NCBI GenBank assembly: GCA_964537895.1
Contig: CAZIDK010000001.1
Span: 134,198-198,197, forward strand
Reading direction: 5' to 3'
DNA from: an uncultured Gammaproteobacteria bacterium
GTDB lineage: Bacteria > Patescibacteriota > Microgenomatia > Levybacterales > UBA12049
Length of the DNA: 64,000 nt
Both the position numbers and the translations under genes were made by a program. Below are positions 2,346 to 61,584 of this stretch, in pieces (within the stretch, counting starts at the first letter, position 1; each line of letters starts with the position of its first letter). The notes beneath the pieces are model-generated. The model was not told where the DNA came from, did no database searches, and was given only the letters and a program-made list of their open reading frames with translations.

Positions 2346-3476
2346 ATGTCCTTACCATCGGGCAAAAAATTGCTGTTACTTGGTTTTATAGCGGTTCTAC
2401 TCGTAGTTATCCCTTTAACTGTGTATCTTGTGCAGCAACAGCAAAAAACAAAAAGCGGAGCCGCTCCCGCAACCACTCTCGGTTTTAATCCCGCAAGTAA
2501 AACAATCGGTGTTAATGACACCGTAAATTTAGACGTGATGATGAATCCGGCAACCAATCAGGTTTCTTTTGTAAAATTAATTATTAACTATGACGCAACA
2601 AAACTTGCGACTGCCGCAGCCGGCGCTACTGTTTGTCCCACAAGACCCAATGACGCTCTTTGTCCAAACATTGCTGCGTTTCCATCTGTTTTACAGGGGC
2701 CAATCTATGGTCCGGGAACAATTTCGGTTACTCTTTCTATTGGCGGGAGCCCTCAAAACATAGTACAGACAGCGACAAGAATTGCCAGTCTTTCTTTCCA
2801 GGCTATCGCTTCCACGGATCCCGGAACAACACAAATAACTATCGACCAGCCCCAATCCCAAGTTCTTTCCATAGCCTCTACCGACCAGTTTAATGAAAAT
2901 GTTTTGTCTACTGTTAGTCCTGCAACAATCACCATAACGGCTGCCGTATCTTCCCCGACTCCCACGCCAACTCCCACGCCAGAGCCAACTGCCTCTCCCA
3001 CGCCAGAGCCAACTGCCTCTCCCACGCCAAACGCTCAAGCGCCGGTTTGCGAAAGCCTAACTTTAAGCGGAGCGGCAACCGGAACAGCGCCGTATTCGCT
3101 TACTTTCACTGCAACAGGCACTTCTTCGGCAAGCACAATCAGCAAGGTTACGTTTAACTTTGGTGACAGCGCGGTTTTGGATGAACCCCAGTCGGGAGGT
3201 CCAAGTTCCGTTAGTGTCCAGTCCTCGCATACTTATAATAGTGCCGGAACATTTGTTGCGTCTGCTTCCTTAACCGATGTTCTTGGAAACGTAAGCGATA
3301 CTGCAAACTGTACACAAACAATAACGGTAACTGCGGCACCAACTTCAACAGCTATAGCCCAGGCAACGCCAGCACCTCCTCTTCCGGTAGTCGGTCCTGA
3401 TGCCAAAATATTGGCAATAGGAGCAATAGGAACAATACTTTCTGTACTTGGAATACTACTTTTCTTTGCCCTTTAA
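2346..3476 (+). CDS. secreted or anchored surface protein: signal/TM, cohesin-like domain, PKD-like domain, Pro/Thr linker, C-terminal GPDxKI + hydrophobic tail
   Basis: The likely start is the internal Met (MSLPSGKKLLLLGFIAVLLVVIPLTVYL, hydrophobic). VNDTVNLDVMMNP...VSFVKLIINYDATKL resembles a cohesin fold. VTFNFGDS...HTYNSAGTFVASASLTD resembles a PKD domain. The linker is PTPTPTPEPTASPTPEPTASPTP. The C-terminus is VGPDAKILAIGAIGTILSVLGILLFFAL followed by a stop. Confidence 0.6.
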   Translation: MSLPSGKKLLLLGFIAVLLVVIPLTVYLVQQQQKTKSGAAPATTLGFNPASKTIGVNDTVNLDVMMNPATNQVSFVKLIINYDATKLATAAAGATVCPTRPNDALCPNIAAFPSVLQGPIYGPGTISVTLSIGGSPQNIVQTATRIASLSFQAIASTDPGTTQITIDQPQSQVLSIASTDQFNENVLSTVSPATITITAAVSSPTPTPTPTPEPTASPTPEPTASPTPNAQAPVCESLTLSGAATGTAPYSLTFTATGTSSASTISKVTFNFGDSAVLDEPQSGGPSSVSVQSSHTYNSAGTFVASASLTDVLGNVSDTANCTQTITVTAAPTSTAIAQATPAPPLPVVGPDAKILAIGAIGTILSVLGILLFFAL

Positions 3477-7344: not shown

Positions 7345-7902
7345 ATGCAAAAAAACTCTCCCTCAATAAATCTGTTAAAAAAACAGACGAGCTTAATTGA
7401 CAGACTTGTTAACTGGGCATTAACAGTAGGAAGACTGCTGGTTATATTAACGGAGATTGTTGCTTTATCGGCTTTTATATACCGTTTTTCTCTGGACAGA
7501 CAGTTGATAGATTTGCACTCTAAAATTACTCAGGAACAAGCAATTGTTAATTATTTAAAAGATAACGAACAAACATATCGTAATTTACAGGATAGATTAG
7601 CTGCTGCAGCAAATTACAGCACTTTGGGGGTAGACAGGTTTAAAATTTTTAGTGATATCGTGGGTTTTACTCCAAAAGGAATGGCTTTTAATAATCTTTC
7701 ATTATATGAAAATCGAATCAGAATAGACGCAAACGTTGATTCGGTTTCATCCCTTAGTATTTTTGTAAATTCTCTTAAAAATTATTCTGCCATCGATACG
7801 GTGAGCATAGACAAAATAGAAAATAAACCGTCAAGCGCAGTTATTACGATAAGCATCACCGCTATACTTAAACCTAATTTCACTTATGCAACTACAAACT
7901 AA
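7345..7902 (+). CDS. PilN-like type IV pilus assembly membrane protein (tentative)
   Basis: It has the N-terminal INLL motif (SINLLKKQ) followed by a single TM helix and a coiled-coil/periplasmic-type domain. This architecture resembles PilN. No pilM was seen adjacent. Confidence 0.35.
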   Translation: MQKNSPSINLLKKQTSLIDRLVNWALTVGRLLVILTEIVALSAFIYRFSLDRQLIDLHSKITQEQAIVNYLKDNEQTYRNLQDRLAAAANYSTLGVDRFKIFSDIVGFTPKGMAFNNLSLYENRIRIDANVDSVSSLSIFVNSLKNYSAIDTVSIDKIENKPSSAVITISITAILKPNFTYATTN

Positions 7903-8503
7903 TAGTTTATTTAAAAACTTACAGAAAAAGAAATACTTTGAGATGTTACCGGATTTCAAAGAAGAAAGAATGCAAAAGTTTACTACTTTAGTTTTTACCA
8001 TTATCGCATTATCGTTTTTTGGGCTTTTTGCAATTAACCCAACGCTTTCAACCATTGCCAACTTAAACAAACAATTATCGGATAGTAAATTTGTTGACCA
8101 AGAGCTTCAAAGCAAAATAAACAATTTGTATCTCCTTCAGGAAAAATATGGCCAACTTACACCGGACATACCTTACGTTTTAGATTCATTTCCTAAAAAT
8201 CCGCAGGTTCCTCTTTTAATTGCGCAGCTGCAATCGCTGGCGCAAAGTTCAAACGTTGCAATTACGGGTCTTCAGACTTTTGAAATCGAAATTCCTAACT
8301 CCTCCGTTAACACAAAAAAATATTACGCTTTTTCTTTTAGTATTTCGGCAAACGGTTCTTATGAAAGCATTTCAAAATTTATCGATTCAATGATTAAAAT
8401 GCAAAGAATTGTTTCTATAAATATTCTCTCTTTAAGCCGAAATAGCGGAGAAGGTCCGTCAACGCAATTAAATTTTAAAGGTACGGCATATTTTAAACAA
8501 TAA
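7886..8503 (+). CDS. PilO-like membrane protein (tentative); start uncertain (7886, 7943 or 7970)
   Basis: It has an N-terminal TM (TLVFTIIALSFFGLFAI), then a coiled-coil, then an alpha/beta domain. It is co-oriented with and overlaps the PilN-like gene. Confidence 0.3.
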   Translation: MQLQTNSLFKNLQKKKYFEMLPDFKEERMQKFTTLVFTIIALSFFGLFAINPTLSTIANLNKQLSDSKFVDQELQSKINNLYLLQEKYGQLTPDIPYVLDSFPKNPQVPLLIAQLQSLAQSSNVAITGLQTFEIEIPNSSVNTKKYYAFSFSISANGSYESISKFIDSMIKMQRIVSINILSLSRNSGEGPSTQLNFKGTAYFKQ

Positions 8504-8505
8504 GC

Positions 8506-8841
8506 ATGAAACAAAGAGACATTATTACATTACTGATACCATCATTCATCTTAATAGTAGCGTGGATTATTTTCAGTATTTATCATAGCTCTGTAACCTC
8601 GACTATACCGCCCGCTACAAACATCCAGATATCCCCGATAACGCCTGCCTTTGATATGGATGTGATATCTAAATTAAAACAAAGACAAAAAGTTACACCT
8701 CTTTATGAAGGGCAAGCTATTGCTTCCCCAACGCCAACGCCGGGGTTTCCAAATATTTTCTCGTCTTCTTTATCCGCTTCTCAAATAACCGGCTCTAGTA
8801 ATGCTCCTCAAGGCTCGCCGGGAGGAAGTCTGTTGCCATGA
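8506..8841 (+). CDS. small membrane protein with Pro-rich tail
   Basis: 111 aa with an N-terminal TM (IITLLIPSFILIVAWIIFSIY). It is translationally coupled to the next gene (ATGA overlap). Confidence 0.4.
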   Translation: MKQRDIITLLIPSFILIVAWIIFSIYHSSVTSTIPPATNIQISPITPAFDMDVISKLKQRQKVTPLYEGQAIASPTPTPGFPNIFSSSLSASQITGSSNAPQGSPGGSLLP

Positions 8842-10256
8842 AAAAAACAATTTGGGATAAACGTATACCAACACTTTTAGGAATGTTGCTTATAGTTGTT
8901 GGTATCGGTCTGACTTCTTTCTTAGTTGATAAGGGAGTAATTTTCATTGGACGCGCCAGTCCGGCAACAAATCCGCAAAACGTAAGAATAACCAACATTA
9001 CAGACAATTCATTTACTGTTTCTTATAATACGGATGCGCAAGTTATAGGCAGTTTAACTTATGGAAAAGATCAAAATTTAGGACAGACTGCCCTGGACGA
9101 CAGAGACCAGCAAACAGGCTCTTTGGCTAACCATAAGATTCACAGTATTACCGTAAGAAGCTTATCGCCTGTGACAAAATATTTTTTTTCGATTACCAGC
9201 GGGCAAGATAAATTTTCAAATAACGACACTCCATTCGAAGTGGTTACCGGAGCAAACGCAACTAGTCCTCCCTCGGAACAAAAACCGGTCGTTGGAAAAG
9301 TGGTTATGCCAAACGGCCAAGCCCCTGATGAGGCAATAATTTATATTACAACCGCCAACTCTCAAGTTATCTCTTCGCTTGTAAAATCCGGCGGAACCTA
9401 TTTGATTCCCCTGAATTCCGTGAGAAGTCAGGATTTGGCATCTTATTTGGATTTTTCAACCGTGAACACTCTTAAAATGCTTGTTTTTGGAGACGGATTG
9501 TCTTCAAACGTATCCTTATCTATAAACCAAATAAATCCTGTTCCAACCGTAACTCTTTCTCAAAATTATGATTTTGCAACAGGTACGGAACCTGTAGCAT
9601 CTTCATCGGCACAGCAAAATTCAGCCGAAAGTTTCCCGTCGCCAAAACCTAATGAAAATGTTTCAAGTAAGACCCCCCAGATACTAACTCCGCAGGCAAA
9701 TCAAAGTTTTTCCGATCAACAGCCTCTTTTTAAAGGCACTGGGAAGCCTAATGAAACTGTAAAAATAGAGATACACTCGGATGCGCAAATACAAACCGAG
9801 GTAAAAACCGATGCAAATGGAAATTGGAGCTACAGACCTAACGTCCCGCTTTCACCGGGACAGCATACGATTTCTATAACTACAAAAGATATAAACGGGA
9901 TATTAAGAACAATAACAGAAAATTTTACGGTTTATGCCGCAGGGAGTCAAGTTAACCCTGTTGCCAACCCTCCCACGGCCACCCCGACTCCCAGCCCGGC
10001 CCCATCCGCGACCCCTACACCAACTCCATCACCTACTCCTGCCGCAACGCCAACGTCTACTCCGGCGGCAACCGTTACGCCTACTCCAACTCCATCACCC
10101 ACTCCTACTCCAACCGTAGCGCCGACGGTAGCGCCCTCTAATCCCGGGCTTGCACCGGGAGGAAACTTACCGGGACCTGATGGGAAAATAATTACCTTAG
10201 GACTCCTCGGAGGAATACTTACCATTATCGGAGCCGTACTGCTATTTGCTTTATAA
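8838..10256 (+). CDS. surface protein: N-terminal TM/signal, fibronectin-III-like domain, beta-rich region, long Pro/Thr/Ala linker, C-terminal GPDxKI + hydrophobic tail
   Basis: The N-terminal TM is followed by NVRITNITDNSFTVSYNTD...HSITVRSLSPVTKYFFSI (FN3 / purple-acid-phosphatase-N-like). The 3' region encodes PTATPTPSPAPSATPTPTPSPTPAATPTSTPAATVTPTPTPSPTPTPTVAPTVAP. It ends PGPDGKIITLGLLGGILTIIGAVLLFAL followed by a stop. This tail is paralogous to the tail of the 2346..3476 protein. Confidence 0.6.
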   Translation: MKKTIWDKRIPTLLGMLLIVVGIGLTSFLVDKGVIFIGRASPATNPQNVRITNITDNSFTVSYNTDAQVIGSLTYGKDQNLGQTALDDRDQQTGSLANHKIHSITVRSLSPVTKYFFSITSGQDKFSNNDTPFEVVTGANATSPPSEQKPVVGKVVMPNGQAPDEAIIYITTANSQVISSLVKSGGTYLIPLNSVRSQDLASYLDFSTVNTLKMLVFGDGLSSNVSLSINQINPVPTVTLSQNYDFATGTEPVASSSAQQNSAESFPSPKPNENVSSKTPQILTPQANQSFSDQQPLFKGTGKPNETVKIEIHSDAQIQTEVKTDANGNWSYRPNVPLSPGQHTISITTKDINGILRTITENFTVYAAGSQVNPVANPPTATPTPSPAPSATPTPTPSPTPAATPTSTPAATVTPTPTPSPTPTPTVAPTVAPSNPGLAPGGNLPGPDGKIITLGLLGGILTIIGAVLLFAL

Positions 10257-10269
10257 TAAATACCGCTTT

Positions 10270-11448
10270 ATGAAAATAAATAAACTTCAGCCCTACCTTG
10301 TGTATTTTTTAATATTCGGAATTACTTTTATAATCTATTTTCTTACTTCCTCTGAAAATACTCCATATAACTATTTTGTTAGACTTGCCGATGCTTTTAT
10401 CAATCACAGGCTTTATCTTACAGAACACCCATCATGGCTAAGTGAATTAATTCCCATCGCGGGTAAGTATTACGTCGCTTATCCTCCAATGCCGGCAATA
10501 TTATTAATTCCGTTTGTTGCGATTTTTGGAACTGGGTTTTCACAAACTATTTTTTCAATATTCTTAGGTAGCCTTAACCCGATTATTTTATATAGTATTT
10601 TTAAAAAAATAAAAATATCTGAAAAAACAGCTTTGCTTACAACTATTTTTTTTGTATTCGGAACCAACTATTGGTTTTTATCAAGCGTAGGCTCTTCTTG
10701 GTATTTAGCCCACATTGTTGCTATTTTTTTTCTACTCTTAGCAATAAGAGAAACTTTTACAAAACAAAGGTTAATTATCATAGGTTTATTGTTGGGAGCA
10801 AGTTATTGGTCGCGGTCTGCAACAATTTTCGCTTTCCCCTTTTTTCTTTTATACTTGAACGACAAATTTCTACCAATAAACAAAAAATCTATTTATAATT
10901 TAATATCTTTTGGAATTTCTGTTGGTTTTTTTATTTTTTTGAACAGTCTTTATGGTTATCTTAGGTTTTCAAGTATTGATCCCGTTTCCCCTTATTGGAG
11001 CGCGCTTCAATCACAAAAATCATTAAATTTAAAAGACGGTGTTTTAAACATTATTCATATTCCTTCGCAACTTAGCGCAATGTTTTTAAGTCTCCCCCGT
11101 TTTCAAAAAGAATGGCCCTATATAATTCCTTCTCTTTATAGTCTTGCCATATGGTTTACTTCTCCCGCAATAATTTTTATTCTTAAAGCAAAAAAATCTC
11201 TGTTGACGATTTCACTGTGGGCTGCAATTATTCCAATCTTTTTTGTAATATCCTTATGGAAGTTTTCCGGATACAGCCAATTTGGATTTCGTTATGCCCA
11301 AGATTTTATGCCTTTTGCACTAATTTTGGTTGCTTTAGGTATCGGACAAAAACCAAAATTAATTACATATTTTTTGGTTTTCTTAAGTATAATTATTAAT
11401 TTTTGGGGAATAATTATGATTAACTTTTTGAATATTTGGATAATGTAA
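10270..11448 (+). CDS. GT-C fold membrane glycosyltransferase (ArnT/PMT_2-like)
   Basis: About 390 aa polytopic membrane protein. The first extracytoplasmic loop carries acidic and aromatic residues after TM1, as in ArnT/PMT_2. The ORF track starts at 10246, but the Met at 10270 avoids overlap with the upstream stop. Confidence 0.45.
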   Translation: MKINKLQPYLVYFLIFGITFIIYFLTSSENTPYNYFVRLADAFINHRLYLTEHPSWLSELIPIAGKYYVAYPPMPAILLIPFVAIFGTGFSQTIFSIFLGSLNPIILYSIFKKIKISEKTALLTTIFFVFGTNYWFLSSVGSSWYLAHIVAIFFLLLAIRETFTKQRLIIIGLLLGASYWSRSATIFAFPFFLLYLNDKFLPINKKSIYNLISFGISVGFFIFLNSLYGYLRFSSIDPVSPYWSALQSQKSLNLKDGVLNIIHIPSQLSAMFLSLPRFQKEWPYIIPSLYSLAIWFTSPAIIFILKAKKSLLTISLWAAIIPIFFVISLWKFSGYSQFGFRYAQDFMPFALILVALGIGQKPKLITYFLVFLSIIINFWGIIMINFLNIWIM

Positions 11449-11453: not shown

Positions 11454-12797
11454 TTATTTCCAGCTGGAAAACCAAAAGTAAGAATCATACCAACTAACGC
11501 ATCCTTGAGGAATTACGCACTTAGGCATATGTATCGCCGTCCATAATGGGAAAAAATAAACAAATAAAATTAGCGACAGAGAAAGAAAAGTTATCACGAA
11601 TGCTTTACCGATTTTTTGAGACAAAAGCTTGTTGAGAACATATCCTGTTGCAATTGCCAAAAATGGAACTGCCGGCAGGTAATGGTAGTAGAACATAATT
11701 CTCGGAGAACCAACCCATGGCAAGAAAAAACCAAAGTAACCAATGAGAACTATGGCAATTGCCATTGTTCTTTTTCTGATGAATTCAAAAAGAAGAAAAA
11801 TAACCGATACTAATCCAAACCACATAAAAAGCGGGTTGCCCAAGTTATAAATACCGGCAATCGTATTGTCTTTATAATCTACATAAATCCAAACCGGCCT
11901 AAGATCAAAAGCCCATTGCGAAGGAGTCGACTGGTATGGATGAGTTGCTTTTAGACGCGTATGGTACCAATACATTTGCTGTTGCAGTCCAATAAAAGTT
12001 TCGACATTGAAAACTGAAGATTTGTTACCTGGCGGAGTATGTTTTCCTGTAAAAAATGGAAGATAAACAGCCAGATAAACAAGCAAAGGAATAATTAAAA
12101 AGAATAAAGGCGCTGCTATTAAATTTTTTAGAGCTTTTCTTTTGGAAATATCTTTTTTTCTAAGTTTTAAAACAAGCTGAATAATATATATTATGCCGAT
12201 TATTCCTATTCCAAAAAGTCCTGTCCATTTTGATGCGATAGAAAGTCCCAATGCTAAGCCCAGCAAAAGTTTTCTGTTATGCAAAAATAAGAAGAAAGCA
12301 AGCAAAATAAAAAAGAGAAAATACATATCGTTCATGGCAATACGCGACATGGTAAGAAGAAGTCCGTCTAAAGAAGCGGCAAAAGCCGCAAATAATGCAA
12401 TTAAACGGTTTTTAAAAAGCTTGTAGCTAATTAAATAAATTAAGACTATTACACCAAAACCGAAAAGGGCTGAAAAAAATCTCCAGGCAAACGGATTATC
12501 ACCAAAAACAGACATTGCAATTACCATGAATTCTTTGGCTAAAGGCGGATGCGTCCATTCATAAGCAAACCCTTTAGGAGGAGTGTTCCACCATTCCCAG
12601 GCGGCCGGATTACCTCTGAACATTTGTTGTGCGGTAAAAGCATGATAAACCTCATCGAATATGTGATTTTTTGGAATTCCCAAGCGGACAAACCTTGTTA
12701 AAAAGGCTAAAGTAAAAATTATAATTTCGGGAAGAAAAAATAATATTTTATTAATAATTTTTTCACTCTTTATTTTTGGTTTTTTATTTTTTTTCAT
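11454..12797 (-). CDS. dolichyl-phosphate-mannose protein O-mannosyltransferase family (GT39/PMT)
   Basis: 447 aa polytopic. The loop-1 DE motif is in the PMT context HIFDEVYHAFTAQQM, followed by a long hydrophobic core with RIAMND and YHY segments. Confidence 0.65.
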   Translation of the reverse strand: MKKNKKPKIKSEKIINKILFFLPEIIIFTLAFLTRFVRLGIPKNHIFDEVYHAFTAQQMFRGNPAAWEWWNTPPKGFAYEWTHPPLAKEFMVIAMSVFGDNPFAWRFFSALFGFGVIVLIYLISYKLFKNRLIALFAAFAASLDGLLLTMSRIAMNDMYFLFFILLAFFLFLHNRKLLLGLALGLSIASKWTGLFGIGIIGIIYIIQLVLKLRKKDISKRKALKNLIAAPLFFLIIPLLVYLAVYLPFFTGKHTPPGNKSSVFNVETFIGLQQQMYWYHTRLKATHPYQSTPSQWAFDLRPVWIYVDYKDNTIAGIYNLGNPLFMWFGLVSVIFLLFEFIRKRTMAIAIVLIGYFGFFLPWVGSPRIMFYYHYLPAVPFLAIATGYVLNKLLSQKIGKAFVITFLSLSLILFVYFFPLWTAIHMPKCVIPQGCVSWYDSYFWFSSWK

Positions 12798-14046
12798 AAA
12801 TTAATTTTTGATTTTTATAATAAACATGCAACATGATACCAAATATAATTAGCGAAAACACAGAAAAAAATACCTGATAATTTGAGGATATATCAAAAAT
12901 AATATTCTTCGGAGCCATTGGATTATTATAAATAACGTTATAGTAATAATAAGAATAAAACAGATTAATAAAATTAATAATAGCGAGGACAATATAGCTT
13001 ACAATAAGTGTTCTTGACCTAAAAACACACGCTGAAATAATAAGGAGCGAAAAGACCGGAAATAAGTGCCTTTCATGAATGCGGGTTAAAAATAAAAAAA
13101 AAGCAAATGATAAAATTGTATACAAAAGATAATCTAGTCTTATAAATGATTTTGATTTTTTTATTAATAAAGGAATAAAAATAATACAGAGTACAAATCC
13201 ATATAAAACATAACCCCACATATGATATGACAAATTAAGCCATAACGTCGCATCCGGCTTCCACCATCCAAAAAGTCCCCAAAAATTATAAGCGTTAATA
13301 GAGGTATAAGGATAAACATTCAAAGAGGTTGATAGGTGTTTAAATGGTCCAAAGAATGGGTCGCTTGGAAAAAATGGCATTGTGACAATAAAAAAAATTA
13401 ATAAAGATACTCCTGATGCTTTTAATATTTTTTGAGCGGAAAAATTTTTAATTATTCTATATAACATTAACGGAAAAAGAGCGACGTTCAAAGGTTTAAT
13501 TAAAAATGATAAAACGCTTGCAGAAAGCGATTTAACAATATTCTTTTTTTCTTCAAGCTGATATAAAGATAAAGTAAGAAGAAAAGTTGGTATTGCATCT
13601 ATTTGCCCCCATACTGAACTGTTAAAAATTACGCTTGGATTTAGCAAATATAAAATGCTCCCCAAATACGCCCATTTTTTAGAATGTTTATTTATAATTT
13701 TTAAAATTATAAATGCGGTTAAAATATCAAAAATATTACTTATAACTTTTATGTAAATTTCAAAACCAATTGAAAAAATAGCAGCGTTTCCAAAAATTAA
13801 TGCAAATATTTTTGCTAAAATAAAAAGGGAGAGATAGAAAAACGGAAAATAATCTGCAAAAATATTTGCTGAATAAAAATTAAACGGTCCAACTTCTACA
13901 AGTCTTGCCGCCCATGCTTGCCAGTCATTCATATCTATTTTAAAACTTGGTTGAGTAAATAAGAAAATACGTATAAATAAAATAGCCATTATGGAAAGAG
14001 TTGCCGGTAGGGGTATTTTTCTATATTCTCTTAAAAAATTTTCCAT
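12784..14046 (-). CDS. GT-C superfamily polytopic membrane glycosyltransferase, family uncertain
   Basis: 420 aa with at least 10 TM segments. It is adjacent to and co-oriented with the PMT-family gene. It has no soluble catalytic domain. Confidence 0.4.
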   Translation of the reverse strand: MENFLREYRKIPLPATLSIMAILFIRIFLFTQPSFKIDMNDWQAWAARLVEVGPFNFYSANIFADYFPFFYLSLFILAKIFALIFGNAAIFSIGFEIYIKVISNIFDILTAFIILKIINKHSKKWAYLGSILYLLNPSVIFNSSVWGQIDAIPTFLLTLSLYQLEEKKNIVKSLSASVLSFLIKPLNVALFPLMLYRIIKNFSAQKILKASGVSLLIFFIVTMPFFPSDPFFGPFKHLSTSLNVYPYTSINAYNFWGLFGWWKPDATLWLNLSYHMWGYVLYGFVLCIIFIPLLIKKSKSFIRLDYLLYTILSFAFFLFLTRIHERHLFPVFSLLIISACVFRSRTLIVSYIVLAIINFINLFYSYYYYNVIYNNPMAPKNIIFDISSNYQVFFSVFSLIIFGIMLHVYYKNQKLIYEKK

Positions 14047-14052: not shown

Positions 14053-15219
14053 TTAGCTTTGGGGTTTTATGGAAACAGAGCAATTGCCCGTTTTTACTTC
14101 ACAATATATGTATTTTTGTATTTCTGTAAAATTTCCATTTCCTAATCTTGGAATAAGTACCCATTCCAAATTATAATCACTTGTTATTGGAGGATTTATA
14201 AGAAGTCCCGGCCTTTGAGCTTTTTCATCTCCCGTATCTATTACTGCGCTGTTTATTCTTACCTGATTCATTTTCTGGGCAAGTCTTACAAAATCGTCAA
14301 ACTCATCTTGTTTTATATCTGTATCTATACTGCCTTTTAAAACGCTATATAGACTCAGAATTTTTGCGGGGTTTATAAGCGTTTGTGCGGATAAAACTTT
14401 GTCTTTAAAAGCTTTTATTACTTTTTCCTGTCTTTTGCTTCTTGCAAAATCACTTCCCTCATTACCCTCCGAACTCCTTGATCTTACAAATTCAAGAGCT
14501 GTTTCTCCGTCCATGCGCTGTAATCCTTTATCAAAACGTAAATATTTATACCGGCAGGGCAATTCTTGGGGCAACAATTCAGCAGATACAGTAGCTAAGC
14601 TTTGAAGTTCTTCCGGGGTTTTATTGCAGGAATCGTTTTCCTTACCGCTAATTGGATATTGATAATCAACAAAAGAGTTATCAACCATAACGTCCAAACC
14701 TCCGACAATATTAACTGCCTTAACAAAACCCGAAAAATCAATCCTTAATCCGTAATCAACATCCCAACCTGTAACTTTTTCTACTATTTTTTTTGATAAA
14801 AGCAATCCTCCGCCTTTTCTTTTTAACTCTCCGACTGCGTATGCACTGTTAATTCTTTTATCATCTCCTTCTAAGTCAGGCATCCATAAATCTCTTGGAA
14901 TTGATATAAGAGTCATTTTATTATTTTTAAGATCAAGGCTTGCAAGGATAATTGTATCTGTTAAATTCGGGCCGTCATGACTTCCGCCTCCGATACCCAA
15001 AAGAAGAATGTTAATCCTATTGTTGGTTTCTTTTAATGCAACTCCTTTATCAAAAAACAAATGGAATAAAAATGGATACAAATTGGCTGTTTTTACAATA
15101 ATAAATACTGCTAAAATAACCACAAAAATTCCTACGATAATTAAGGGTTTTTTATTATGCATTTTGAATAATTTTGATAAACTCTTCCGCCTCAAGACTT
15201 GCTCCTCCAACCAAAACAC
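14053..15219 (-). CDS. LytR-CpsA-Psr (LCP) family cell-envelope phosphotransferase
   Basis: An N-terminal TM is followed by INILLLGIGGGSHDGPNLTDTIILASLD...LISIPRDLW...GGGLLL...GLRIDFSGFVKAVNIVGGLDV, which is the LCP core. The start may be the internal Met at 15162. Confidence 0.8.
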   Translation of the reverse strand: MFWLEEQVLRRKSLSKLFKMHNKKPLIIVGIFVVILAVFIIVKTANLYPFLFHLFFDKGVALKETNNRINILLLGIGGGSHDGPNLTDTIILASLDLKNNKMTLISIPRDLWMPDLEGDDKRINSAYAVGELKRKGGGLLLSKKIVEKVTGWDVDYGLRIDFSGFVKAVNIVGGLDVMVDNSFVDYQYPISGKENDSCNKTPEELQSLATVSAELLPQELPCRYKYLRFDKGLQRMDGETALEFVRSRSSEGNEGSDFARSKRQEKVIKAFKDKVLSAQTLINPAKILSLYSVLKGSIDTDIKQDEFDDFVRLAQKMNQVRINSAVIDTGDEKAQRPGLLINPPITSDYNLEWVLIPRLGNGNFTEIQKYIYCEVKTGNCSVSIKPQS

Positions 15220-15841: not shown

Positions 15842-17716
15842 GTGGTATCATTATACGGTATGAGGCAAGATTTTCTCAAGGACTTGAATAAGGAACAGCT
15901 CCAGGCAGTGCTTCAAAAAAATGGTCCGATGATAATATTAGCCGGAGCAGGTAGCGGCAAAACAAGGGTTTTAACCTATAAAGTTATCTATTTAATTTCA
16001 GAAGGGATAAGTCCTTTCAACATTCTCATGGTAACTTTTACTAATAAAGCCAGTAAAGAAATGAAAGAAAGAATGCAAAAGTTTTTTAAAAAAGGTGACA
16101 AACAGGTTTCCGAACTTCCGTCAATATCTACTTTTCATGCGCTTTGTGCAAAAATATTAAGAATTGAAGGTAAATACATTGGGATCCCAAATAATTTCTT
16201 AATATACGATAGTCAAGATCAAAAAGACACAATAAAAGAAGCCTTTAATCTTTTAGGGCTATCTCTAAAAGAGTACAAACCTTCATCTATTCTTGCAACC
16301 ATATCTCAAGCAAAAAACGAATTAATTGATGAAACACAATATCCGTCTTTTGCCAGAGGGCATTTTCAAGAAGTAGTTTCCAGAGTTTATGTAATTTATC
16401 AAAAAATCTTAAAGGAAAATGCTGCTTTGGATTTTGATGATTTAATTTTAAAAACAGTTGAGTTATTTAGAAAAAACCCGGATGTTTTGGAAAAATATCA
16501 AAATAAATTTAAGTATATTTTTGTAGATGAATATCAGGACACAAATCACGCACAATACCTGCTTACGAAACTGCTTAGCCGGAAATGGAACAATATTTGC
16601 GTCGTCGGCGATTTTTCTCAAAGCATATATAGTTTTAGAGGCGCAGATTTTTTAAACCTTGCAAAGTTTAAAGAGGATTTTAAAGATACAAAAACTTTTT
16701 CTCTTTCACAAAATTATAGATCAACTCAAAGAATTCTTGACGGGGCTTCTTCTGTTATATCTAAAAATAACGGTCATCCTGTTTTACAACTTTGGACCGA
16801 AAACAAAGCCGGAGAAGATATTTCAATTTTTGAAGCGTTAAATGAACAGCGTGAAGCGGAATTTACCTTAGAAGAAATGGAAAAAATTAAATATCAGAAT
16901 CCGAGTTTAAGATATTATGATTTCGCAATTCTTTACAGGACAAACGCGCAATCGAGGGCAATTGAGGAAGTTTTTATTCATAGCGGAATTCCATACATCC
17001 TAATCGGCGGAACAAGATTTTACGAAAGAAAAGAAGTCAAAGATGTGCTTTCTTATTTAAGAGTTATTGCAAATCCCAAAGACAAAATTTCTTTAAAAAG
17101 ATTAGAAAAATTAGGCAAAGGAAAATTTGTTAAATTCCTGGATTTTCAAAAAACTTTAGATGAAAAAAATATAAGTAGTGATACGACAATTTCTATTATG
17201 GATAGTGCTTTAAAAGCAACAGATTATCTTTCTTTATACAACGCAAAAGACGGGGAAGATTTGGGAAGACTTGAAAATATCAAGGAGCTTCGTTCTGTTG
17301 CAATCTCCTATCCTAATCTTGGAGAGTTTTTAGAAAATGTATCTTTGGTTGAACAAGAATATATACCCGATCACATAAAAGACGAAAACGGCAAGAAAGA
17401 TGCAATAAATTTAATGACTTTGCATGCGGCTAAAGGTTTGGAGTTTCCTGTTGTTTTTATGGTAGGAATGGAAGAGGGACTTTTTCCGCATAGCAGGAGC
17501 ATGATGGATAAAAATGAACTTGAAGAAGAAAGAAGACTCTGTTATGTTGGGATGACAAGAGCTAAAGAAAAACTCTTTTTAACCTATTCAAGAAAAAGGC
17601 TTTTCTTCGGACAAAAAACGACAAATATTGTGTCTAGATTTATACTGGAACTTCCGGAAGGAGTGTTGGAGAAAAGCTTAAATCGGATACGGATTGACGT
17701 TCCTGAATATTTATGA
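15842..17716 (+). CDS. UvrD/PcrA-family ATP-dependent DNA helicase
   Basis: GAGSGKTRVLT Walker A, FVDEYQDTN Walker B, helicase motifs through the Q-rich and VGMTRAK motif VI regions. The likely start is Met-7 (15860). Confidence 0.9.
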   Translation: MVSLYGMRQDFLKDLNKEQLQAVLQKNGPMIILAGAGSGKTRVLTYKVIYLISEGISPFNILMVTFTNKASKEMKERMQKFFKKGDKQVSELPSISTFHALCAKILRIEGKYIGIPNNFLIYDSQDQKDTIKEAFNLLGLSLKEYKPSSILATISQAKNELIDETQYPSFARGHFQEVVSRVYVIYQKILKENAALDFDDLILKTVELFRKNPDVLEKYQNKFKYIFVDEYQDTNHAQYLLTKLLSRKWNNICVVGDFSQSIYSFRGADFLNLAKFKEDFKDTKTFSLSQNYRSTQRILDGASSVISKNNGHPVLQLWTENKAGEDISIFEALNEQREAEFTLEEMEKIKYQNPSLRYYDFAILYRTNAQSRAIEEVFIHSGIPYILIGGTRFYERKEVKDVLSYLRVIANPKDKISLKRLEKLGKGKFVKFLDFQKTLDEKNISSDTTISIMDSALKATDYLSLYNAKDGEDLGRLENIKELRSVAISYPNLGEFLENVSLVEQEYIPDHIKDENGKKDAINLMTLHAAKGLEFPVVFMVGMEEGLFPHSRSMMDKNELEEERRLCYVGMTRAKEKLFLTYSRKRLFFGQKTTNIVSRFILELPEGVLEKSLNRIRIDVPEYL

Positions 17717-18720
17717 TAAATAAAAAATTACATCCCTTGCAATCCCCAGAGTGGGGGGAATTCAGAAAAAAAACAGGCGTTAAAGTTGTTAGGATTAATA
17801 ATTTACAACTCACAATTCATTCTCTTCCCCATACAAAATATACAATCGGATATTTTCCTAAAGGACCGGATATTGATAAAAAAATGCTTGATAAGCTTTT
17901 GGAGATCGGCAAAAAAGAGAACTGCATTTTTATTCAGCTAGAACCAAACGTTGAAAAGATAGATAATAAAAAATATAAGTTAAAAAATCTTTTTCCCTCC
18001 TTACGCCCTCTTTTTACCAAATATACCTTTATTTTAGATTTAACAAAATCGGAAGATAAACTTTTAAAGAACATGAATTCTAAAACAAGATATAACACCA
18101 AATTAGCAGAAAAAAAAGGCGTAAAAGTAATTGAAGATAATTCAGATAAAGCTTTCGAAGAGTATTTACGCCTTACCAAAGAAACAACACAAAGACAAAG
18201 ATTCTATGCCCACAGCGAAAGATATCACAGGCTAATGTGGGAAACGTTAAGTAATCAAAAATCATCCATTCGGGACATTCGGCTGAGCTCAGTCGAAGCC
18301 CAAGCTCAGGACAAAAATCAAAAATCGGATGATACCGAGCTATCTGCGCATTTATTGAAAGCTGAATATGAAGGAGAAATTTTAGCAGCGTGGATTTTAT
18401 TTGTTTTGGGGGATACGCTTTATTATCCTTATGGAGCTTCAAGTACTAAATACAAAGAAGTAATGGCTTCAAATCTTATGATGTGGGAAACAATAAAATT
18501 TGGTAAGAAATTGGGACTTAAAAATTTTGATATGTGGGGCGCGCTTGGGGTAAATCCTAACAGCAAAGACCCTTGGTACGGATTTCATAAGTTTAAAGAG
18601 GGGTATGGAGCAAAACACGTAGAATTTGTAGGCAGTTACGATTATGTTTTGAAGAAGAAATTATATGTTATTTATAATATCTTAAATAATATCCGCTGGC
18701 TTATTCTAAAACTTAAATAA
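17713..18720 (+). CDS. FemAB-family peptidoglycan interpeptide aminoacyl-transferase, carrying a 25-aa in-frame repeat-encoded insertion
   Basis: About 335 aa. It has the FemAB-like N-terminus (SPEWGEFRKKTG) and the conserved C-terminal ...DTLYYPYGASS...GFHKFKEGYG. It overlaps uvrD by ATGA. Residues NQKSSIRDIRLSSVEAQAQDKNQKS are encoded by the 74-nt repeat. Confidence 0.55.
   Translation: MINKKLHPLQSPEWGEFRKKTGVKVVRINNLQLTIHSLPHTKYTIGYFPKGPDIDKKMLDKLLEIGKKENCIFIQLEPNVEKIDNKKYKLKNLFPSLRPLFTKYTFILDLTKSEDKLLKNMNSKTRYNTKLAEKKGVKVIEDNSDKAFEEYLRLTKETTQRQRFYAHSERYHRLMWETLSNQKSSIRDIRLSSVEAQAQDKNQKSDDTELSAHLLKAEYEGEILAAWILFVLGDTLYYPYGASSTKYKEVMASNLMMWETIKFGKKLGLKNFDMWGALGVNPNSKDPWYGFHKFKEGYGAKHVEFVGSYDYVLKKKLYVIYNILNNIRWLILKLK
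18253..18326 (+). repeat. 74-nt insertion-like repeat, copy A (in-frame within the FemAB-family gene)
   Basis: AATCAAAAATCATCCATTCGGGACATTCGGCTGAGCTCAGTCGAAGCCCAAGCTCAGGACAAAAATCAAAAATC. It is identical to the reverse complement of 43946..44019. It has the internal 10-bp palindrome CTGAGCTCAG and 11-nt direct terminal repeats AATCAAAAATC. Confidence 0.85.
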
Positions 18721-19229: not shown

Positions 19230-19517
19230 CTAAAAAATATAAATTACTTTTCCAAGAATATCATTTTTTGATACAAAACCAAAATTCTTACTGTCTAAGC
19301 TGTCGTTTAAATTATCTCCTGCTAAAAAATACTTATTTCCGGTTTTTCTTATAATTCTTTTTATCAAAATTTTCTTATTTTTTTTAAATGCAGCTATTTC
19401 TTTAACACTAGGTTCTGAAAACAAATAAGGAATTTTACTAACTAAAACGTGTTGTTCATTTTTAATTGCGGGTTCCATGCTGTGACCAGAAATTTTAAAC
19501 CAGGATAAAAGAAGCAT
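19230..19517 (-). CDS. sodX: nickel-SOD maturation protease SodX (S26 signal-peptidase-like)
   Basis: 95 aa. GHSMEP (Ser nucleophile box) and KRIIRK (catalytic Lys box) are present. It lies immediately downstream of sodN and overlaps it by 1 nt. Confidence 0.7.
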   Translation of the reverse strand: MLLLSWFKISGHSMEPAIKNEQHVLVSKIPYLFSEPSVKEIAAFKKNKKILIKRIIRKTGNKYFLAGDNLNDSLDSKNFGFVSKNDILGKVIYIF

Positions 19518-20053
19518 TATTTATGAAGTACAATTTCTCCGCCTGTTGGATAAACCGTTTTAACTCTTACCGGCTCTACCCCTTTTGTTTTGTAGAAAAT
19601 CTCTGCTATTTGCAGTACTTCTTCCAATAATTCTTTTGCCGCAGCCATATCAATATTTTGTCTGGCTTTTGCCCCAAGTTTGTTTGCATTTGAGAAATGT
19701 TCTCCTAACTTAGGATGCTCTTTATAGTGTTCTTCTCTGAAATAGTCATTCTCAAGAGTAGTTAGTTCTTCTTCCAAAAGACTTGAATGATCTTCTTTAA
19801 CATATGTAATTCTTGCAATATCATGCTCCGGTTTTGTTTCAGCTTGTCCTGAGTTTGCTTGTGGTGAGCTTGCCGAATCCGTCGAAGGATTATCCCTTTT
19901 AACCTCTGTTAAGAGTTGGGTCATGCGAATAATTGTATGCGCTGCAACTTGTGCGTTATGGGGATCATATATTCCGCAGGGAATATCACAATGAGCATAG
20001 GCTATTTTTCCTATTAACAACTTTTCCAAAAGAAAACGGAGAACTGTTTTCAT
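19517..20053 (-). CDS. sodN: nickel-containing superoxide dismutase precursor
   Basis: A pro-peptide is followed by the Ni-hook HCDIPCGIYDP (HCDxPCGxYDP). Cleavage before His would expose His1. It carries an internal acidic/Ser-rich insertion compared with about 130-aa NiSODs. Confidence 0.8.
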   Translation of the reverse strand: MKTVLRFLLEKLLIGKIAYAHCDIPCGIYDPHNAQVAAHTIIRMTQLLTEVKRDNPSTDSASSPQANSGQAETKPEHDIARITYVKEDHSSLLEEELTTLENDYFREEHYKEHPKLGEHFSNANKLGAKARQNIDMAAAKELLEEVLQIAEIFYKTKGVEPVRVKTVYPTGGEIVLHK

Positions 20054-37757: not shown

Positions 37758-38456
37758 TTATTCAATCTTATCTGATTTTTGAAGGTTGTGTTTCATGCAT
37801 AAAAGCCTGACATTTTTTGCCGTAAGACTTGTTCCACCTTTTGAAAAAGGCAATTCATGGTCAAAATGCAAATTTTTCGTTTCGCTACAAATAACACACT
37901 TCCCCTTATCTCTTTTCCAAACTTCTTTTTTTACTTCTGTTGGAACTAATCTTGTATGTAAAATTTCTTTTTGTAAGCTACCGTCAACTTGTTGATTTTC
38001 TGACAAACGAAGAATAAATCTAAATACACCTCTACCGTCTTCAAAAACTATCTTGTAGTCTACAAGATCAAAAAAACCTTTTAAAGACCAGACGCCAGGC
38101 ATTATTTTTTCGTATACTTTTACAACTTCCGGATTATTTCCATTTTCCTTAAACTCTTTGACAGCTTCGATGAATAAGCCATTTTGGGTTAATTTTCCAG
38201 AAGGAAGTTTATCGGGTTGGTCTTCATATTTTGGATTATGAGTATAAGATCTTTTGGAAACATCGTGCCCTTCGTATTCTATTGTAATTCCGTCTTCGTA
38301 AACTCTATCCTTGTACGGCGCGTTTGATCTTTGCGACATTAAAATAACAGAGTAAGAACTCCCTAGATGAAAATTCATCCCGCGCTGAAGAGCTTGGGCG
38401 TTTTCTGTGTCGCACATTTCTCTATAGCTGAGGATATCATCTCGAATTTTGTTCAT
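37758..38456 (-). CDS. HNH endonuclease with N-terminal SRA-like (modified-cytosine-binding-like) domain; candidate type IV restriction enzyme
   Basis: The C-terminus CVICSETKNLHFDHELPFSKGG...NVRLLCMKHNLQKSD is the HNH (C..C...H-x-DH...N...H) motif. The N-terminal segment YSVILMSQRSNAPYKDRVYEDGITIEYEGHD resembles the SRA signature S-I-V-L-S-G-G-Y-x-D-D-x-D-x-G-x-x-x-x-Y-T-G. Confidence 0.5.
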   Translation of the reverse strand: MNKIRDDILSYREMCDTENAQALQRGMNFHLGSSYSVILMSQRSNAPYKDRVYEDGITIEYEGHDVSKRSYTHNPKYEDQPDKLPSGKLTQNGLFIEAVKEFKENGNNPEVVKVYEKIMPGVWSLKGFFDLVDYKIVFEDGRGVFRFILRLSENQQVDGSLQKEILHTRLVPTEVKKEVWKRDKGKCVICSETKNLHFDHELPFSKGGTSLTAKNVRLLCMKHNLQKSDKIE

Positions 38457-38583: not shown

Positions 38584-39078
38584 ATGGCTAACATTAGCTT
38601 CAATAAAGAAAAATATAAAGCCGCTTTACTCTATATATCTAACTCCTTAAAGGGAATAGAAGGAAAGAAAAAAGCATATAAGTTGTTCTATTTTTTAGAT
38701 TTCGATTTTTTCGAGGCATACGGCAAATCTTTTACAGGCGATACATATAAAGCACTAGAAATGGGGCCTGCTCCAATATATTTTGATAGTATAGTTCAGG
38801 AACTTATTGACGAGGGTAAAATAGAAATCAAGAAAGTACGAAAATCTCCAACCCATGAGAATGATACTGTTATCTTCAAGCCTCTGACAAATACTGATTA
38901 CAGCTTCACAAAGGAAGAAAAAAGTATGCTTGATAGAATAATTGAATTATATGGTAATCAAACAGGCACGAATCTTGAAAAACTATCTCATGCTGAAGCG
39001 CCATATAACGCCGTTGATCTCTATCAAATAATACCCTACGAATATAGTATTTATAGAGACACTCCGAATTTAGCTTAA
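38584..39078 (+). CDS. Panacea/DUF4065 (SocA-like) antitoxin-domain protein
   Basis: KAYKLFYFLDFDFFEAYGKSFTGDTYKALEMGPAPIYFDSIVQEL matches the DUF4065 core (KLqKLlY.aDf....g.s.TGd.y.a...GPV...vyd.l). A sigma70-like -10 TATAAT and an AAGGAG RBS lie upstream. Confidence 0.6.
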   Translation: MANISFNKEKYKAALLYISNSLKGIEGKKKAYKLFYFLDFDFFEAYGKSFTGDTYKALEMGPAPIYFDSIVQELIDEGKIEIKKVRKSPTHENDTVIFKPLTNTDYSFTKEEKSMLDRIIELYGNQTGTNLEKLSHAEAPYNAVDLYQIIPYEYSIYRDTPNLA

Positions 39079-42087: not shown

Positions 42088-42345
42088 TCAAATATTTAAC
42101 GAGTTTGAAAGTCTCTTATAAATATTTGTAATTCCCTGACCGTAATTTTTTAAGGCCTGCTCTCTTTTCCTTGCGTCTTTTTCAGAAAGATAAGCTTCAT
42201 AATAAACCAGCACTAAAGGCAGTCTGTGTTTGGTTGAAAAGACTTTCACTCCATTATGCAATTTTATTCTGTTCTTCAAATCATTTGTTGAACCGATATA
42301 GCATTTATTATCTTTTTTACTTTTCAAAATGTAGACATATGACAT
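42088..42345 (-). CDS. GIY-YIG nuclease family small protein
   Basis: The internal start MSYVYILKSKKDNKCYIGSTNDLKNRIKLHN gives the GIY-YIG motif (YVYIL...YIGST...R...H). The 64 codons upstream in the ORF track look like spurious read-through. Confidence 0.65.
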   Translation of the reverse strand: MSYVYILKSKKDNKCYIGSTNDLKNRIKLHNGVKVFSTKHRLPLVLVYYEAYLSEKDARKREQALKNYGQGITNIYKRLSNSLNI

Positions 42346-42421
42346 AAAGGTGCAGGATGAACCTATCTTATCACATTCGCATATTGTAATAGAGAGGCTT
42401 TTCCTGTAGAATGGTATCTTA

Positions 42422-43144
42422 ATGAAAAGGTATAAATTGCTTGTCGAAAAAAGAAAAATTCTCGGCAAACAAATTAAAAAATTAAGGAAAGAGGGTATTT
42501 TGCCCGGAAACATCTTTGGCAAAAATATAAAATCCACATCGGTTCAGGTTCCGTTAAAGGAATTTAACGCCGTTTATAAAGAAACTGGAGAAACAGGACT
42601 CGTTGACTTGGAGCTGGATGGAAAAATAATCCCTGTTCTTATTCAAAATCTTCAATCAGACTACAAAAACAATATTTTACACGCCAACTTCTATCAGGTA
42701 AACCTTAAAGAAAAAGTTAAGGCCGCGATACCTTTGGAAATTATAGGAGAACCAACAGCCGTAACCGAAAAACTCGGGCTTTTGATAAATATTTTATCCG
42801 AAGTCGAAGTCGAAGCCTTACCCGAGGATTTGCCTGAAAATATTCAGGTTAACGTTGAGCATTTGGCCGCAGTTGACGATCAAATAACAGTCGCCGACCT
42901 TAAGATACCTACCGGAGTTGAAATTTTAACCGATGCAACGCAGGTTGTGGCAAAGATTGACGAATTAGTCAGTAAAGAAGCTCAAGAATTGGCTGCCGAA
43001 GAAGCCGCAGCTGCCGAAGCGGCCAAAGCGGAAGCCGGAGCGGCTGAAGGTGCCGAAGGCGCACCTGCAGAAGGAGAAACTTCCGCCGAAGGCGAAGGAA
43101 AACCAAGTGAAGAAAAGCCGGCAGATGAAGCTCCTAAAGAATAA
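42422..43144 (+). CDS. rplY: 50S ribosomal protein L25 / general stress protein Ctc form, with Ala/Glu-rich C-terminal extension
   Basis: The N-terminal L25 beta-barrel is RKILGKQIKKLRKEGILPGNIFGKN...LIQNLQ. A C-terminal Ctc domain and an acidic AEEAAAAEAAKAEAGAAEGAEG tail follow. Confidence 0.8.
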   Translation: MKRYKLLVEKRKILGKQIKKLRKEGILPGNIFGKNIKSTSVQVPLKEFNAVYKETGETGLVDLELDGKIIPVLIQNLQSDYKNNILHANFYQVNLKEKVKAAIPLEIIGEPTAVTEKLGLLINILSEVEVEALPEDLPENIQVNVEHLAAVDDQITVADLKIPTGVEILTDATQVVAKIDELVSKEAQELAAEEAAAAEAAKAEAGAAEGAEGAPAEGETSAEGEGKPSEEKPADEAPKE

Positions 43145-53376: not shown

Positions 53377-53634
53377 TTATGCAATTTTATAGAACGGCTG
53401 ACATTTTAAAAGACGTGCCAATGAAAGCCGGGTACCTGTTAAAACACCTTTTTCTTTAATTGAAATTTTTGCGTATTCAGAGCAAGTTGGCGAAAATCTG
53501 CAGCAATTACTAACGCCAACAATACTTTTAATAATATAAGAAAAAACGTTTTTATAAAAGTCTATAAAAAATAAAATAGTTTTTTTCATTTTAATAATTT
53601 CCGTTTTCCCAATTCTCCCAAAGTTAATTCGCAA
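53377..53634 (-). CDS. yidD: membrane protein insertion efficiency factor YidD
   Basis: CRFSPTCSEYA...GTRLSLARLLKCQPF is the YidD signature. The likely start is the internal Met (MKKTILFF). Confidence 0.85.
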   Translation of the reverse strand: MRINFGRIGKTEIIKMKKTILFFIDFYKNVFSYIIKSIVGVSNCCRFSPTCSEYAKISIKEKGVLTGTRLSLARLLKCQPFYKIA

Positions 53635-53915
53635 ATCTCTTTTGTTGTTTTGCCCAGTATATTTTTTTTTAATATAAACAGCATATCATAGCCGGGTTTT
53701 ATTTTGTCAAAATTATCTTCGATACAAACCCTTATTTGTCTTTTAATTCTATTTCTTGCCGTTGCTCTTTTGTCAATTTTTTTTGAAACTACGAAACCAA
53801 ACCTGTTAAAAGATTTTTCATTTTTTGCAAGTCTTAAAACAAAAAATGGGGAAGTATAAAGATCTTCCTTATTAAACTTCGTTTCTTTTAGCAAACGGTA
53901 TTTTTTCTTAAGCAT
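53586..53915 (-). CDS. rnpA: ribonuclease P protein component
   Basis: The basic RNR-like motif ATARNRIKRQIR, and FGFVVSKK, are present. It lies downstream of rpmH. Confidence 0.88.
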   Translation of the reverse strand: MLKKKYRLLKETKFNKEDLYTSPFFVLRLAKNEKSFNRFGFVVSKKIDKRATARNRIKRQIRVCIEDNFDKIKPGYDMLFILKKNILGKTTKEICELTLGELGKRKLLK

Positions 53916-53931
53916 TAATATTAATAACCGC

Positions 53932-55547: not shown

Positions 55548-55673
55548 GTTTTTGAAATTTTACACTTTTTCTAAACACTGTTATACACATTTTATAAACA
55601 TGTTTCTTGGCCGTGCCGCCTTGCTTTTTTCCACTTTTCCAGATACACTACTACTACAACAAGTATCTATATT

Positions 55674-58385: not shown

Positions 58386-58439
58386 GACTTAATAATAGCA
58401 GAAACTAATTGCTGGCAACTAAATACCAGCAACTAGTAA

Positions 58440-61540: not shown

Positions 61541-61584
61541 ATTTGATATGTATTTTTAATATTTTATATTTAATCTTTTAAATG

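Follow-up and report, generated by a model that had tools for sequence, protein, structure and literature searches.

Two surface proteins with unrelated outer domains end in nearly the same tail on one contig of an uncultured bacterium, and the question raised by this locus is whether that tail represents a new C-terminal sorting signal with an enzyme of its own or a descendant of a signal already described. The present analysis concerns a stretch of 64,000 nucleotides, here called the window (assembly GCA_964537895.1, contig CAZIDK010000001.1, positions 134,198 to 198,197 of the forward strand), which belongs to a genome of the Levybacteria (Microgenomates, Patescibacteria/CPR) and whose database homologues are annotated as Candidatus Levybacteria or Patescibacteria. 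The two proteins are referred to as protein 1 and protein 2, and their respective homologues as family 1 and family 2 (Table 1). A preliminary description of the window proposed that GPD[AG]KI[LI] together with the hydrophobic tail behind it is a sorting or anchoring signal, which recalls the tripartite LPXTG/sortase, PGF-CTERM/archaeosortase and PEP-CTERM/exosortase signals but uses a different motif, and which may be recognized by a dedicated sortase-like or rhomboid-like enzyme. Patterns detected among the orthologues agree with the likeness to tripartite signals, specifically to the LPXTG class, and disagree with the different motif, the G of which belongs to LPXTG. The tail is a variant of the known LPXTG/sortase signal in which the LPXT residues have been mutated, and not a new signal. 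In the explanation that we consider likely, both tails are the LPXTG-class, sortase-type signal of Levybacteria (Microgenomates, candidate phyla radiation), which protein 2 obtained by a tail swap and which in protein 1 changed from LPPTG to LPVVG.

Results

A tail shared by two unrelated proteins

The open reading frame (ORF) of protein 1 ends in PPLPVVGPDAKILAIGAIGTILSVLGILLFFAL and that of protein 2 in LAPGGNLPGPDGKIITLGLLGGILTIIGAVLLFAL, each followed by the stop codon. The tails compared here, VGPDAKILAIGAIGTILSVLGILLFFAL for protein 1 and PGPDGKIITLGLLGGILTIIGAVLLFAL for protein 2, lie directly 5′ of the stop codon and consist of G-P-D-x-K and 22 hydrophobic residues, with no lysine or arginine after the hydrophobic stretch. 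The preliminary description had placed them exactly (3390..3476 and 10170..10256) and had correctly reported the lack of a basic end. Without gaps the two tails are identical at 14 of 28 positions, a value reached in 1 of 200,000 composition-preserving shuffles, and the similarity is thus beyond chance; for the hydrophobic part alone identity was 10/22 (p = 0.002, shuffles). The same codon was used at 12 of the 17 identical positions (16 amino acids and the stop codon), with 5.9 expected from codon usage, an excess that may reflect codon preference in membrane segments. No further tail of this kind was present in the other ORFs of the window or in those of the additional flanking sequence of this genome, about 20 kb long (about 84 kb in all).

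Two features expected of LPXTG substrates are present in both proteins, namely a membrane-spanning segment directly after the motif (best 19-residue Kyte-Doolittle means 2.6 for protein 1 and 2.55 for protein 2) and a hydrophobic N-terminal leader, the leaders being judged by inspection. Two others are absent. In place of LPXTG or LAXTG about 30–40 residues from the C-terminus there is LPVVG in protein 1 and GNLPG or LAPGG in protein 2 (10149..10175), and both proteins end in LLF(F)AL without a charged tail.

Pfam matches differed between the two proteins, with PKD on protein 1 (and Cohesin PF00963 precomputed on its homologues) and Big_13, fn3 and Pur_ac_phosph_N on protein 2, and no cross-matches between family 1 and family 2 were obtained by phmmer. 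Judging from these comparisons the ectodomains are unrelated, as the preliminary description had stated together with the presence of Pro/Thr-rich linkers in both. Protein 1 is 100% identical to database entry P0121, located on a 294,612-bp NCBI contig, and 94% identical to P0122. Its type of leader recurs in family-1 homologues and in a third family that bears the tail.

Table 1. Features of protein 1 and protein 2 in the window (positions count from its first nucleotide)
Feature	Position	Strand	Remarks
Protein 1 (family 1)	2346..3476	+	Order: signal/anchor leader, cohesin-like domain, Pro/Thr linker, PKD domain, linker, putative C-terminal sorting-signal tail
Protein 1 leader	2364..2432	+	Hydrophobic, N-terminal; KKLLLLGFIAVLLVVIPLTVYLV, then QQQQKTKSGA; read from sequence
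Protein 1 Pro/Thr-rich linkers	2949..3044, 3330..3380		
LPVVG	3381..3395	+	Degenerate sortase pentapeptide, same position as LPPTG of close orthologues
GPDAK	3393..3407	+	G of LPXTG and next four residues
Protein 1 hydrophobic segment	3408..3476	+	ILAIGAIGTILSVLGILLFFAL, 22 residues and stop; G-x2-G-x6-G pattern, no basic tail
Protein 2 (family 2)	8838..10256	+	Order: leader, FN3-like domain, Big_13 Ig-like domain, long Pro/Thr linker, tail
Protein 2 leader	8865..8927	+	Hydrophobic, N-terminal; IPTLLGMLLIVVGIGLTSFLV; read from sequence
Protein 2 Pro/Thr-rich linker	9954..10148		
LAPGG	10149..10163	+	Possible relic of ancestral family-2 LPPTG; alignment by eye
NLPG-PDGK	10164..10187	+	GPDGK is start of family-1-type tail; G-N-L-P before G, no LPXT
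Protein 2 hydrophobic segment	10188..10256	+	IITLGLLGGILTIIGAVLLFAL, 22 residues and stop

Origin of GPD in family 1

Family-1 orthologues with 72–87% identity to protein 1 end in PPLPPTG-PD[GTAWS]K-IL.IG.IGTILSV.G.LLFFAL. Because these close orthologues read LPPTG-PDGK, the G of the proposed GPD motif is the G of LPXTG, and GPDxK is on this alignment not a recognition motif but that G with the residues past the presumed cleavage site. LPVVG was limited, among close orthologues, to the window, P0121 and P0122. Compared with the orthologue at locus L050, where the codons read CTT CCG CCA ACC GGT, the window has CTT CCG GTA GTC GGT, and the change of CCA ACC to GTA GTC (3387..3392) means that four of six bases differ, the nine bases to either side being identical. 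The change from PT to VV is clustered in a way that would be unlikely under even neutral drift; a small inversion was considered as its origin and rejected, as the bases do not fit.

The motif is variable across the family. Among 166 distinct family-1 tails, position −4 was L in 54%, I in 17%, M in 12% and V in 6%, position −3 was P in 53% and A in 27%, position −2 was P in 63%, and position −1 was T in 68%, P in 13%, S in 7%, V in 6% and A in 3%; the G was present in 100% and was followed by P in 94%. The exact sequence LPPTGP occurred in 48 of 194 family-1 tails and threonine in 129 of 194. Where S, V or A replaced the threonine, a hydrophobic residue at −4 and P or A at −3 were each kept in 90–100% of tails; where P replaced it, the respective values were 61% and 35%. 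The D and K of GPDxK vary across family 1 and are specific to the window's clade, and a hypothetical GPDxK-CTERM domain fits poorly with two copies in about 84 kb and with D and K confined to one clade. In 116 of the 119 family-1 homologues with a scorable motif the C-terminus was 25–26 residues away from the motif G, lysine or arginine within the last 12 residues was found in 0/120 family-1 homologues, and a strict [LIVMF]PxTG was present in 59 of 120 homologues of each family. As read from these alignments the consensus tail is [L/I/M/V]-[P/A]-x-T-G-P, then three or four polar residues, then about 21 hydrophobic residues with G-x2-G-x6-G, ending in LLF(F)AL and lacking a charged tail.

Change of tail type in family 2

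In family-2 orthologues at ≤59% identity there is a textbook sortase signal of three parts, such as KPLPPTGNPSIMTAGIVGAVISLVGGLLFLLTRGGIQAL, with LPPTGN, a membrane segment and TRGG, and a basic residue occurs within the last 12 amino acids (aa) of 59 of 120 family-2 orthologues. The 28 closest orthologues (64–96% identity) end in xSPGPDxK...LLFAL, for example LAPGGNSPGPDGKIITLGLLGGILTIIGAVLLFAL; most members of this clade have G-N-S-P before the tail G, and the window protein has G-N-L-P. When clade family-2 tails were aligned to family-1 tails without gaps up to the C-terminus, GNSPG fell in register with LPPTG. The clade tails scored 38.3 bits on a hidden Markov model (HMM) of distant family-1 tails versus 5.0 bits when the HMM was that of distant family-2 tails. 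Both control comparisons had the opposite outcome, with distant family-2 tails scoring 60.9 bits on their own HMM versus 22.2 bits on the family-1 HMM.

Because the clade tails score higher on the HMM of family 1 than on that of their own family, an exchange of signals is the simplest account: the protein 2 of a common ancestor of one Levybacteria clade would have swapped its own signal for a family-1-type tail starting G-P-D-G-K, without LPXT, and this exchange would be the reason why two unrelated proteins share a tail. The source of the shared tail would be the sorting signal used on the conserved cohesin/PKD surface protein. LAPGGN in the clade may be a relic of the LPPTGN of distant orthologues. 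Ongoing gene conversion between the two tails was considered and rejected, since family-specific tail features persist in every clade genome, which argues against concerted evolution of the tails.

Distribution of the tail

When 1.84 billion (1.84e9) representative proteins were searched with a profile built from 41 tails, 46 matches were obtained at E ≤ 1e-3. Each C-terminal match long enough to classify belonged to family 1, the remainder being three short fragments and internal low-complexity repeats. An 84-nt degenerate pattern (G-P-x7-G-x2-G-x6-G-x2-L-x-F-A-L-stop), which left the LPXT positions unconstrained, recovered 37 true tails from the 185,579 species genomes searched and 43 from metagenomes of JGI; all were on family 1, on family 2 of the clade or on one third family, and all came from Levybacteria or other Patescibacteria. 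A word-indexed homologue search with the two tails alone returned no candidates. The three large searches, of proteins, species genomes and metagenomes, placed the tail on three protein families only, and a proteome-wide use of it was not observed. The third family (L025 5232..6152 and L026 2150..3061) is Cys-rich, about 300 aa long, and has an LPPTGP...LFFAL tail. Its N-terminal leader (IPLTLKFGVQQKQN) is of the same style as that of family 1, and the leader may move jointly with the tail as one cassette.

Canonical and variant motifs were found side by side. A protein 1 with canonical LP[PA]TG and a protein 2 with xSPGPDxK share a contig in JAMCZC010000031, JAKALN010000001 and JAKALS010000005, and further such pairs occur in Ga0315281_10000347, in the genome of entry P0004 and on a 44,949-bp contig, the pairing being indirect in the last case. 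Because the canonical protein 1 coexists with the variant protein 2, there was no genome-wide switch of motif in the clade. One Levybacteria lineage lacks the motif threonine on both proteins, with IAAPGPSE in family 1 (L008, L024, L033) and LPAAGNSS in family 2 (P0095, P0103, P0106), on contigs of 49,022, 40,074 and 26,260 bp; this is the second lineage, besides the window species, in which both signals have changed.

Comparison with known sorting signals

The tails resemble LPXTG and LAXTG signals (class A and class E) in being C-terminal after a Pro/Thr-rich, wall-spanning linker, in that the orthologues have [L/I/M][P/A]xTG followed by a membrane-spanning hydrophobic segment, and in the N-terminal export leaders of the proteins; as in LPXTG hosts, the envelope of the Levybacteria lineage is of the Gram-positive type, and published work attributes a sortase to the lineage. 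Unlike such signals, the Levybacteria tails have no positively charged end, an invariant Pro after the G, a membrane segment that is highly conserved in length and glycine pattern, and a variable threonine position, and the threonine is missing from both window copies (LPVVG and GNLPG). Because the pentapeptide is lacking, the window copies are best read as descendants of an LPXTG signal and not as canonical members. TIGR01167 (LPXTG_anchor) and PF00746 (Gram_pos_anchor) did not match the window proteins or tails at E ≤ 10, and the curated LPXTG models appear to be blind to Levybacteria tails. A search of the literature collection used here for LPXTG with Microgenomates, Patescibacteria, Saccharibacteria, Levybacteria or Candidate Phyla Radiation yielded only a passing mention in a review of type IV secretion.

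PGF-CTERM/archaeosortase, PEP-CTERM/exosortase and GlyGly-CTERM/rhombosortase signals likewise place a short motif and a membrane helix at the very C-terminal end, in many cases behind a Thr-rich linker, but their motifs are different and no basic cluster follows the helix in the window tails. NCBIfam CTERM models gave no match to the window tails at E ≤ 10, and identity with PGF-CTERM, PEP-CTERM or GlyGly-CTERM was rejected for want of a model match, a basic cluster and a cognate enzyme nearby among the window ORFs. Protein 2 is similar to a simple C-terminal stop-transfer anchor in its 22-residue hydrophobic end without a recognizable cleavage motif; unlike such an anchor, its segment descends from a sorting signal and has kept the exact register. 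Ordinary stop-transfer anchors are usually flanked by positive charges on the cytoplasmic side.

Candidate processing enzymes

Among window ORFs of at least 100 aa, Pfam and NCBIfam models detected no sortase, exosortase, archaeosortase or rhomboid, and the dedicated sortase-like or rhomboid-like enzyme envisaged in the preliminary description was found neither in the window nor within 10 kb past either end. Window ORFs without a Pfam match were inspected as possible divergent sortases, and most lacked Cys. Two candidates were considered and rejected: 57525..58385, which has five Cys but appears from its sequence to be a wall hydrolase within a type IV secretion cluster, as a divergent sortase, and 12784..14046, which has no family match and looks like a multi-pass GT-C-type glycosyltransferase, as an exosortase-like enzyme.

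Genomic setting

Proteins 1 and 2 are core genes in deeply conserved synteny. The conserved order runs groES-groEL, protein 1, lepA, murJ, rpsT, pilN-like and pilO, and continues with a 111-aa gene, protein 2, PMT-like GT-C glycosyltransferases, LCP, tpiA, uvrD and femAB, so that protein 1 lies between groES-groEL and lepA. The start codon of protein 2 and the stop codon of the 111-aa gene upstream of it overlap (ATGA, 8838..8841) in a pilN/pilO-type operon (7345..10256), of which protein 2 is the last gene, and this arrangement is kept across Levybacteria (with L051, L053 and L055). A wall- or membrane-anchored Ig/FN3 protein such as protein 2 could be the wall-spanning partner of a type IV pilus platform in bacteria without an outer membrane. 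Directly 3′ of protein 2 are three consecutive multi-pass GT-C/PMT-like glycosyltransferase genes (10246..11448, 11454..12797 and 12784..14046), and an LCP (LytR_cpsA_psr) gene follows at 14053..15219. The linker of protein 2 comprises 65 residues rich in Pro, Thr and Ser, and the glycosyltransferase and LCP genes beside it suggest O-glycosylation of the linker or attachment of a wall polymer. A wall with an interpeptide bridge, which sortase usually takes as its acceptor, would fit with the FemAB-family peptidyltransferase gene at 17713..18720; together the FemAB-family and LCP genes indicate a Gram-positive-type wall.

Several other features of the window may be recorded. A type IV secretion-like cluster (57525..63700) contains genes for a TraG/VirB4-type ATPase (58440..60383), a TraC-like protein (60380..61051), a PrgI-family protein (61585..62805) and type IV secretion pilins (63389..63700), with three or four more pilins past the window end (L005 1..11700). 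Small genes of the “23S rRNA-intervening sequence protein”/bAvd-like type are interspersed in this cluster (61169..61540, 62839..63225 and at least two more upstream). The genes dnaA (54195..55547) and dnaN (55674..56783) face rnpA-yidC-jag on the other strand (53586..56783), which is the usual neighbourhood of a replication origin; rpmH was called between the dnaA/dnaN side and rnpA-yidC-jag in L005, and cumulative GC skew had no turning point at the dnaA-dnaN region. A nickel superoxide dismutase gene occupies 19517..20053 and is adjoined in relatives by a small S26 peptidase gene. HNH (37758..38456) and GIY-YIG (42088..42537) endonuclease-like genes and a SocA/Panacea antitoxin-domain gene (38584..39078) are situated among ruvABC housekeeping genes and may be mobile or toxin-antitoxin insertions.

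Discussion

On the preferred explanation, that of a Levybacteria sortase-type signal of the LPXTG class, the N-terminal leaders of proteins 1 and 2 would serve in export, and the tail would keep both proteins at the cell surface. The sequences show the homology of the tails, where the motif lies, how restricted the distribution is and that the tail type switched; we infer sortase dependence, and any present cleavage of the window copies, from sequence, and the two copies may differ in this respect. Protein 1, with LPVVG, is probably still a substrate of sortase and attached to the wall; LPVVG would still be a cleavable variant because the rest of the motif is intact, as in other lineages with valine, and because valine has nearly the shape of threonine. 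In protein 2, with GN[L/S]PG, recognition has most likely been lost, and the tail would now be an uncleaved C-terminal membrane anchor.

Several observations weigh against this explanation. None of the family-1 homologues scored has the charged tail that sortase substrates normally need, and 32% of family-1 tails lack the threonine of the cleavage position. Such variation is far above that known from characterized sortase substrates, and it could be because the enzyme is relaxed or different or because processing has frequently been lost. The tail swap itself rests on profile scores over about 30 residues, and convergence is formally still conceivable in its place. Canonical tails of the orthologues, like those of the window, were unmatched by TIGR01167 and PF00746, the only hit being to NF053819 at E = 0.16–0.17. 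No sortase (PF04203) was present in the 64-kb window or in 10 kb past each end (precomputed Pfam lists for the flanks), and phmmer and a TLxTC-type pattern detected none in the window or across the 825 kb of sequence from 101 fetched loci. The latter scans were crude, using an approximate sequence of S. aureus SrtA as query, and since the loci were mostly from the same syntenic region they say little about whole genomes. Elsewhere, Microgenomates have been reported to have a “near ubiquitous” sortase family (Meheust et al. 2019, PMC6744442), and a sortase gene is present in one closed genome of the group (PMC7143001).

Other explanations start from the same patterns. If GPD[AG]KI[LI] with its hydrophobic tail were a new sorting signal with a dedicated sortase-like or rhomboid-like enzyme, this would fit the occurrence of G-P-D-x-K-I in two unrelated proteins, the retention of PGPD in 26 of the 28 closest family-2 orthologues while the linker upstream varies, and the lack of any matching NCBIfam or Pfam C-terminal sorting model. 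Outside the clade, however, only G and P are conserved and not D or K, the canonical LPPTG of close orthologues ends at the same G, and the tail is on three families with no candidate enzyme nearby in genomes whose relatives mix canonical and variant forms, such that we regard this explanation as extremely improbable. The preliminary description had itself named, as an outcome that would tell against it, a tail confined to the two proteins with no co-occurring enzyme, and for a GPDxK-specific signal the present results come close to that outcome. A broader form of the argument holds that the whole Levybacterial tail without a charged end, [L/I/M]-[P/A]-x-[T/P/S/V/A]-G-P, belongs to some other undescribed system and that its likeness to LPXTG is superficial. 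An invariant G-P beside a variable threonine, the missing charged end, the unusual conservation of the G-x2-G-x6-G segment and its fixed length, and the silence of the curated LPXTG models are all consistent with this, but it is very unlikely given that LPPTG is by far the commonest form of the motif, that the family-2 proteins of the same genomes bear a textbook LPPTG signal in three parts, and that sortase is reported to be nearly ubiquitous in Microgenomates (PMC6744442) while the window has no match to an exosortase, archaeosortase or rhomboid family.

It is also possible, though doubtful, that both window tails are now plain uncleaved membrane anchors whose motif has decayed, possibly through loss of the sortase or selection for retention in the membrane. 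This would agree with the absence of threonine at the cleavage position of either protein, with the four clustered base changes between unchanged flanks in protein 1, which look like targeted removal of the motif, with the second lineage that has IAAPGPSE and LPAAGNSS, and with the absence of a sortase from the approximately 84 kb of the window genome that was searched. The retention of L, P, G and P in LPVVGP speaks for protein 1 as a continuing substrate, as does the observation that valine elsewhere accompanies an otherwise intact motif, which suggests continued selection, and valine is, again, similar to threonine in shape. Furthermore, the sequence searched covers about a tenth of the genome, taking related Levybacteria contigs of 0.76–0.86 Mb as a guide, and the near ubiquity of sortase in the group (PMC6744442) applies here as well. 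The sortase-type signal, exchanged in protein 2 and altered in protein 1, remains the explanation that we prefer.

A further and more tentative suggestion is that Levybacteria have a sub-type of sortase signal of their own, with no charged tail, an invariant Gly-Pro, a glycine-patterned helix of fixed length and a cleavage residue that may be T, S, V or A, and that lineages toggle surface proteins, including the protein of the pilN/pilO operon, between wall-linked and membrane-anchored states by tail swaps or by clustered mutation of LPXT. If true, this would imply either a sortase with unusual specificity or a role of the conserved G-P helix that is independent of sortase.

No new sorting system is revealed by these data and the practical consequences are modest. 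Annotation pipelines would under-call sortase substrates in the Levybacteria group, and the tails collected here could serve to build a model specific to the lineage. Bacteria belonging to the candidate phyla radiation have an attached life on other cells, and the proteins at their surface, the anchoring of which is poorly described, are likely points of contact. In Levybacteria a core, syntenic surface protein bears an LPXTG-class signal that standard models miss, and single lineages have lost or exchanged its cleavage motif.

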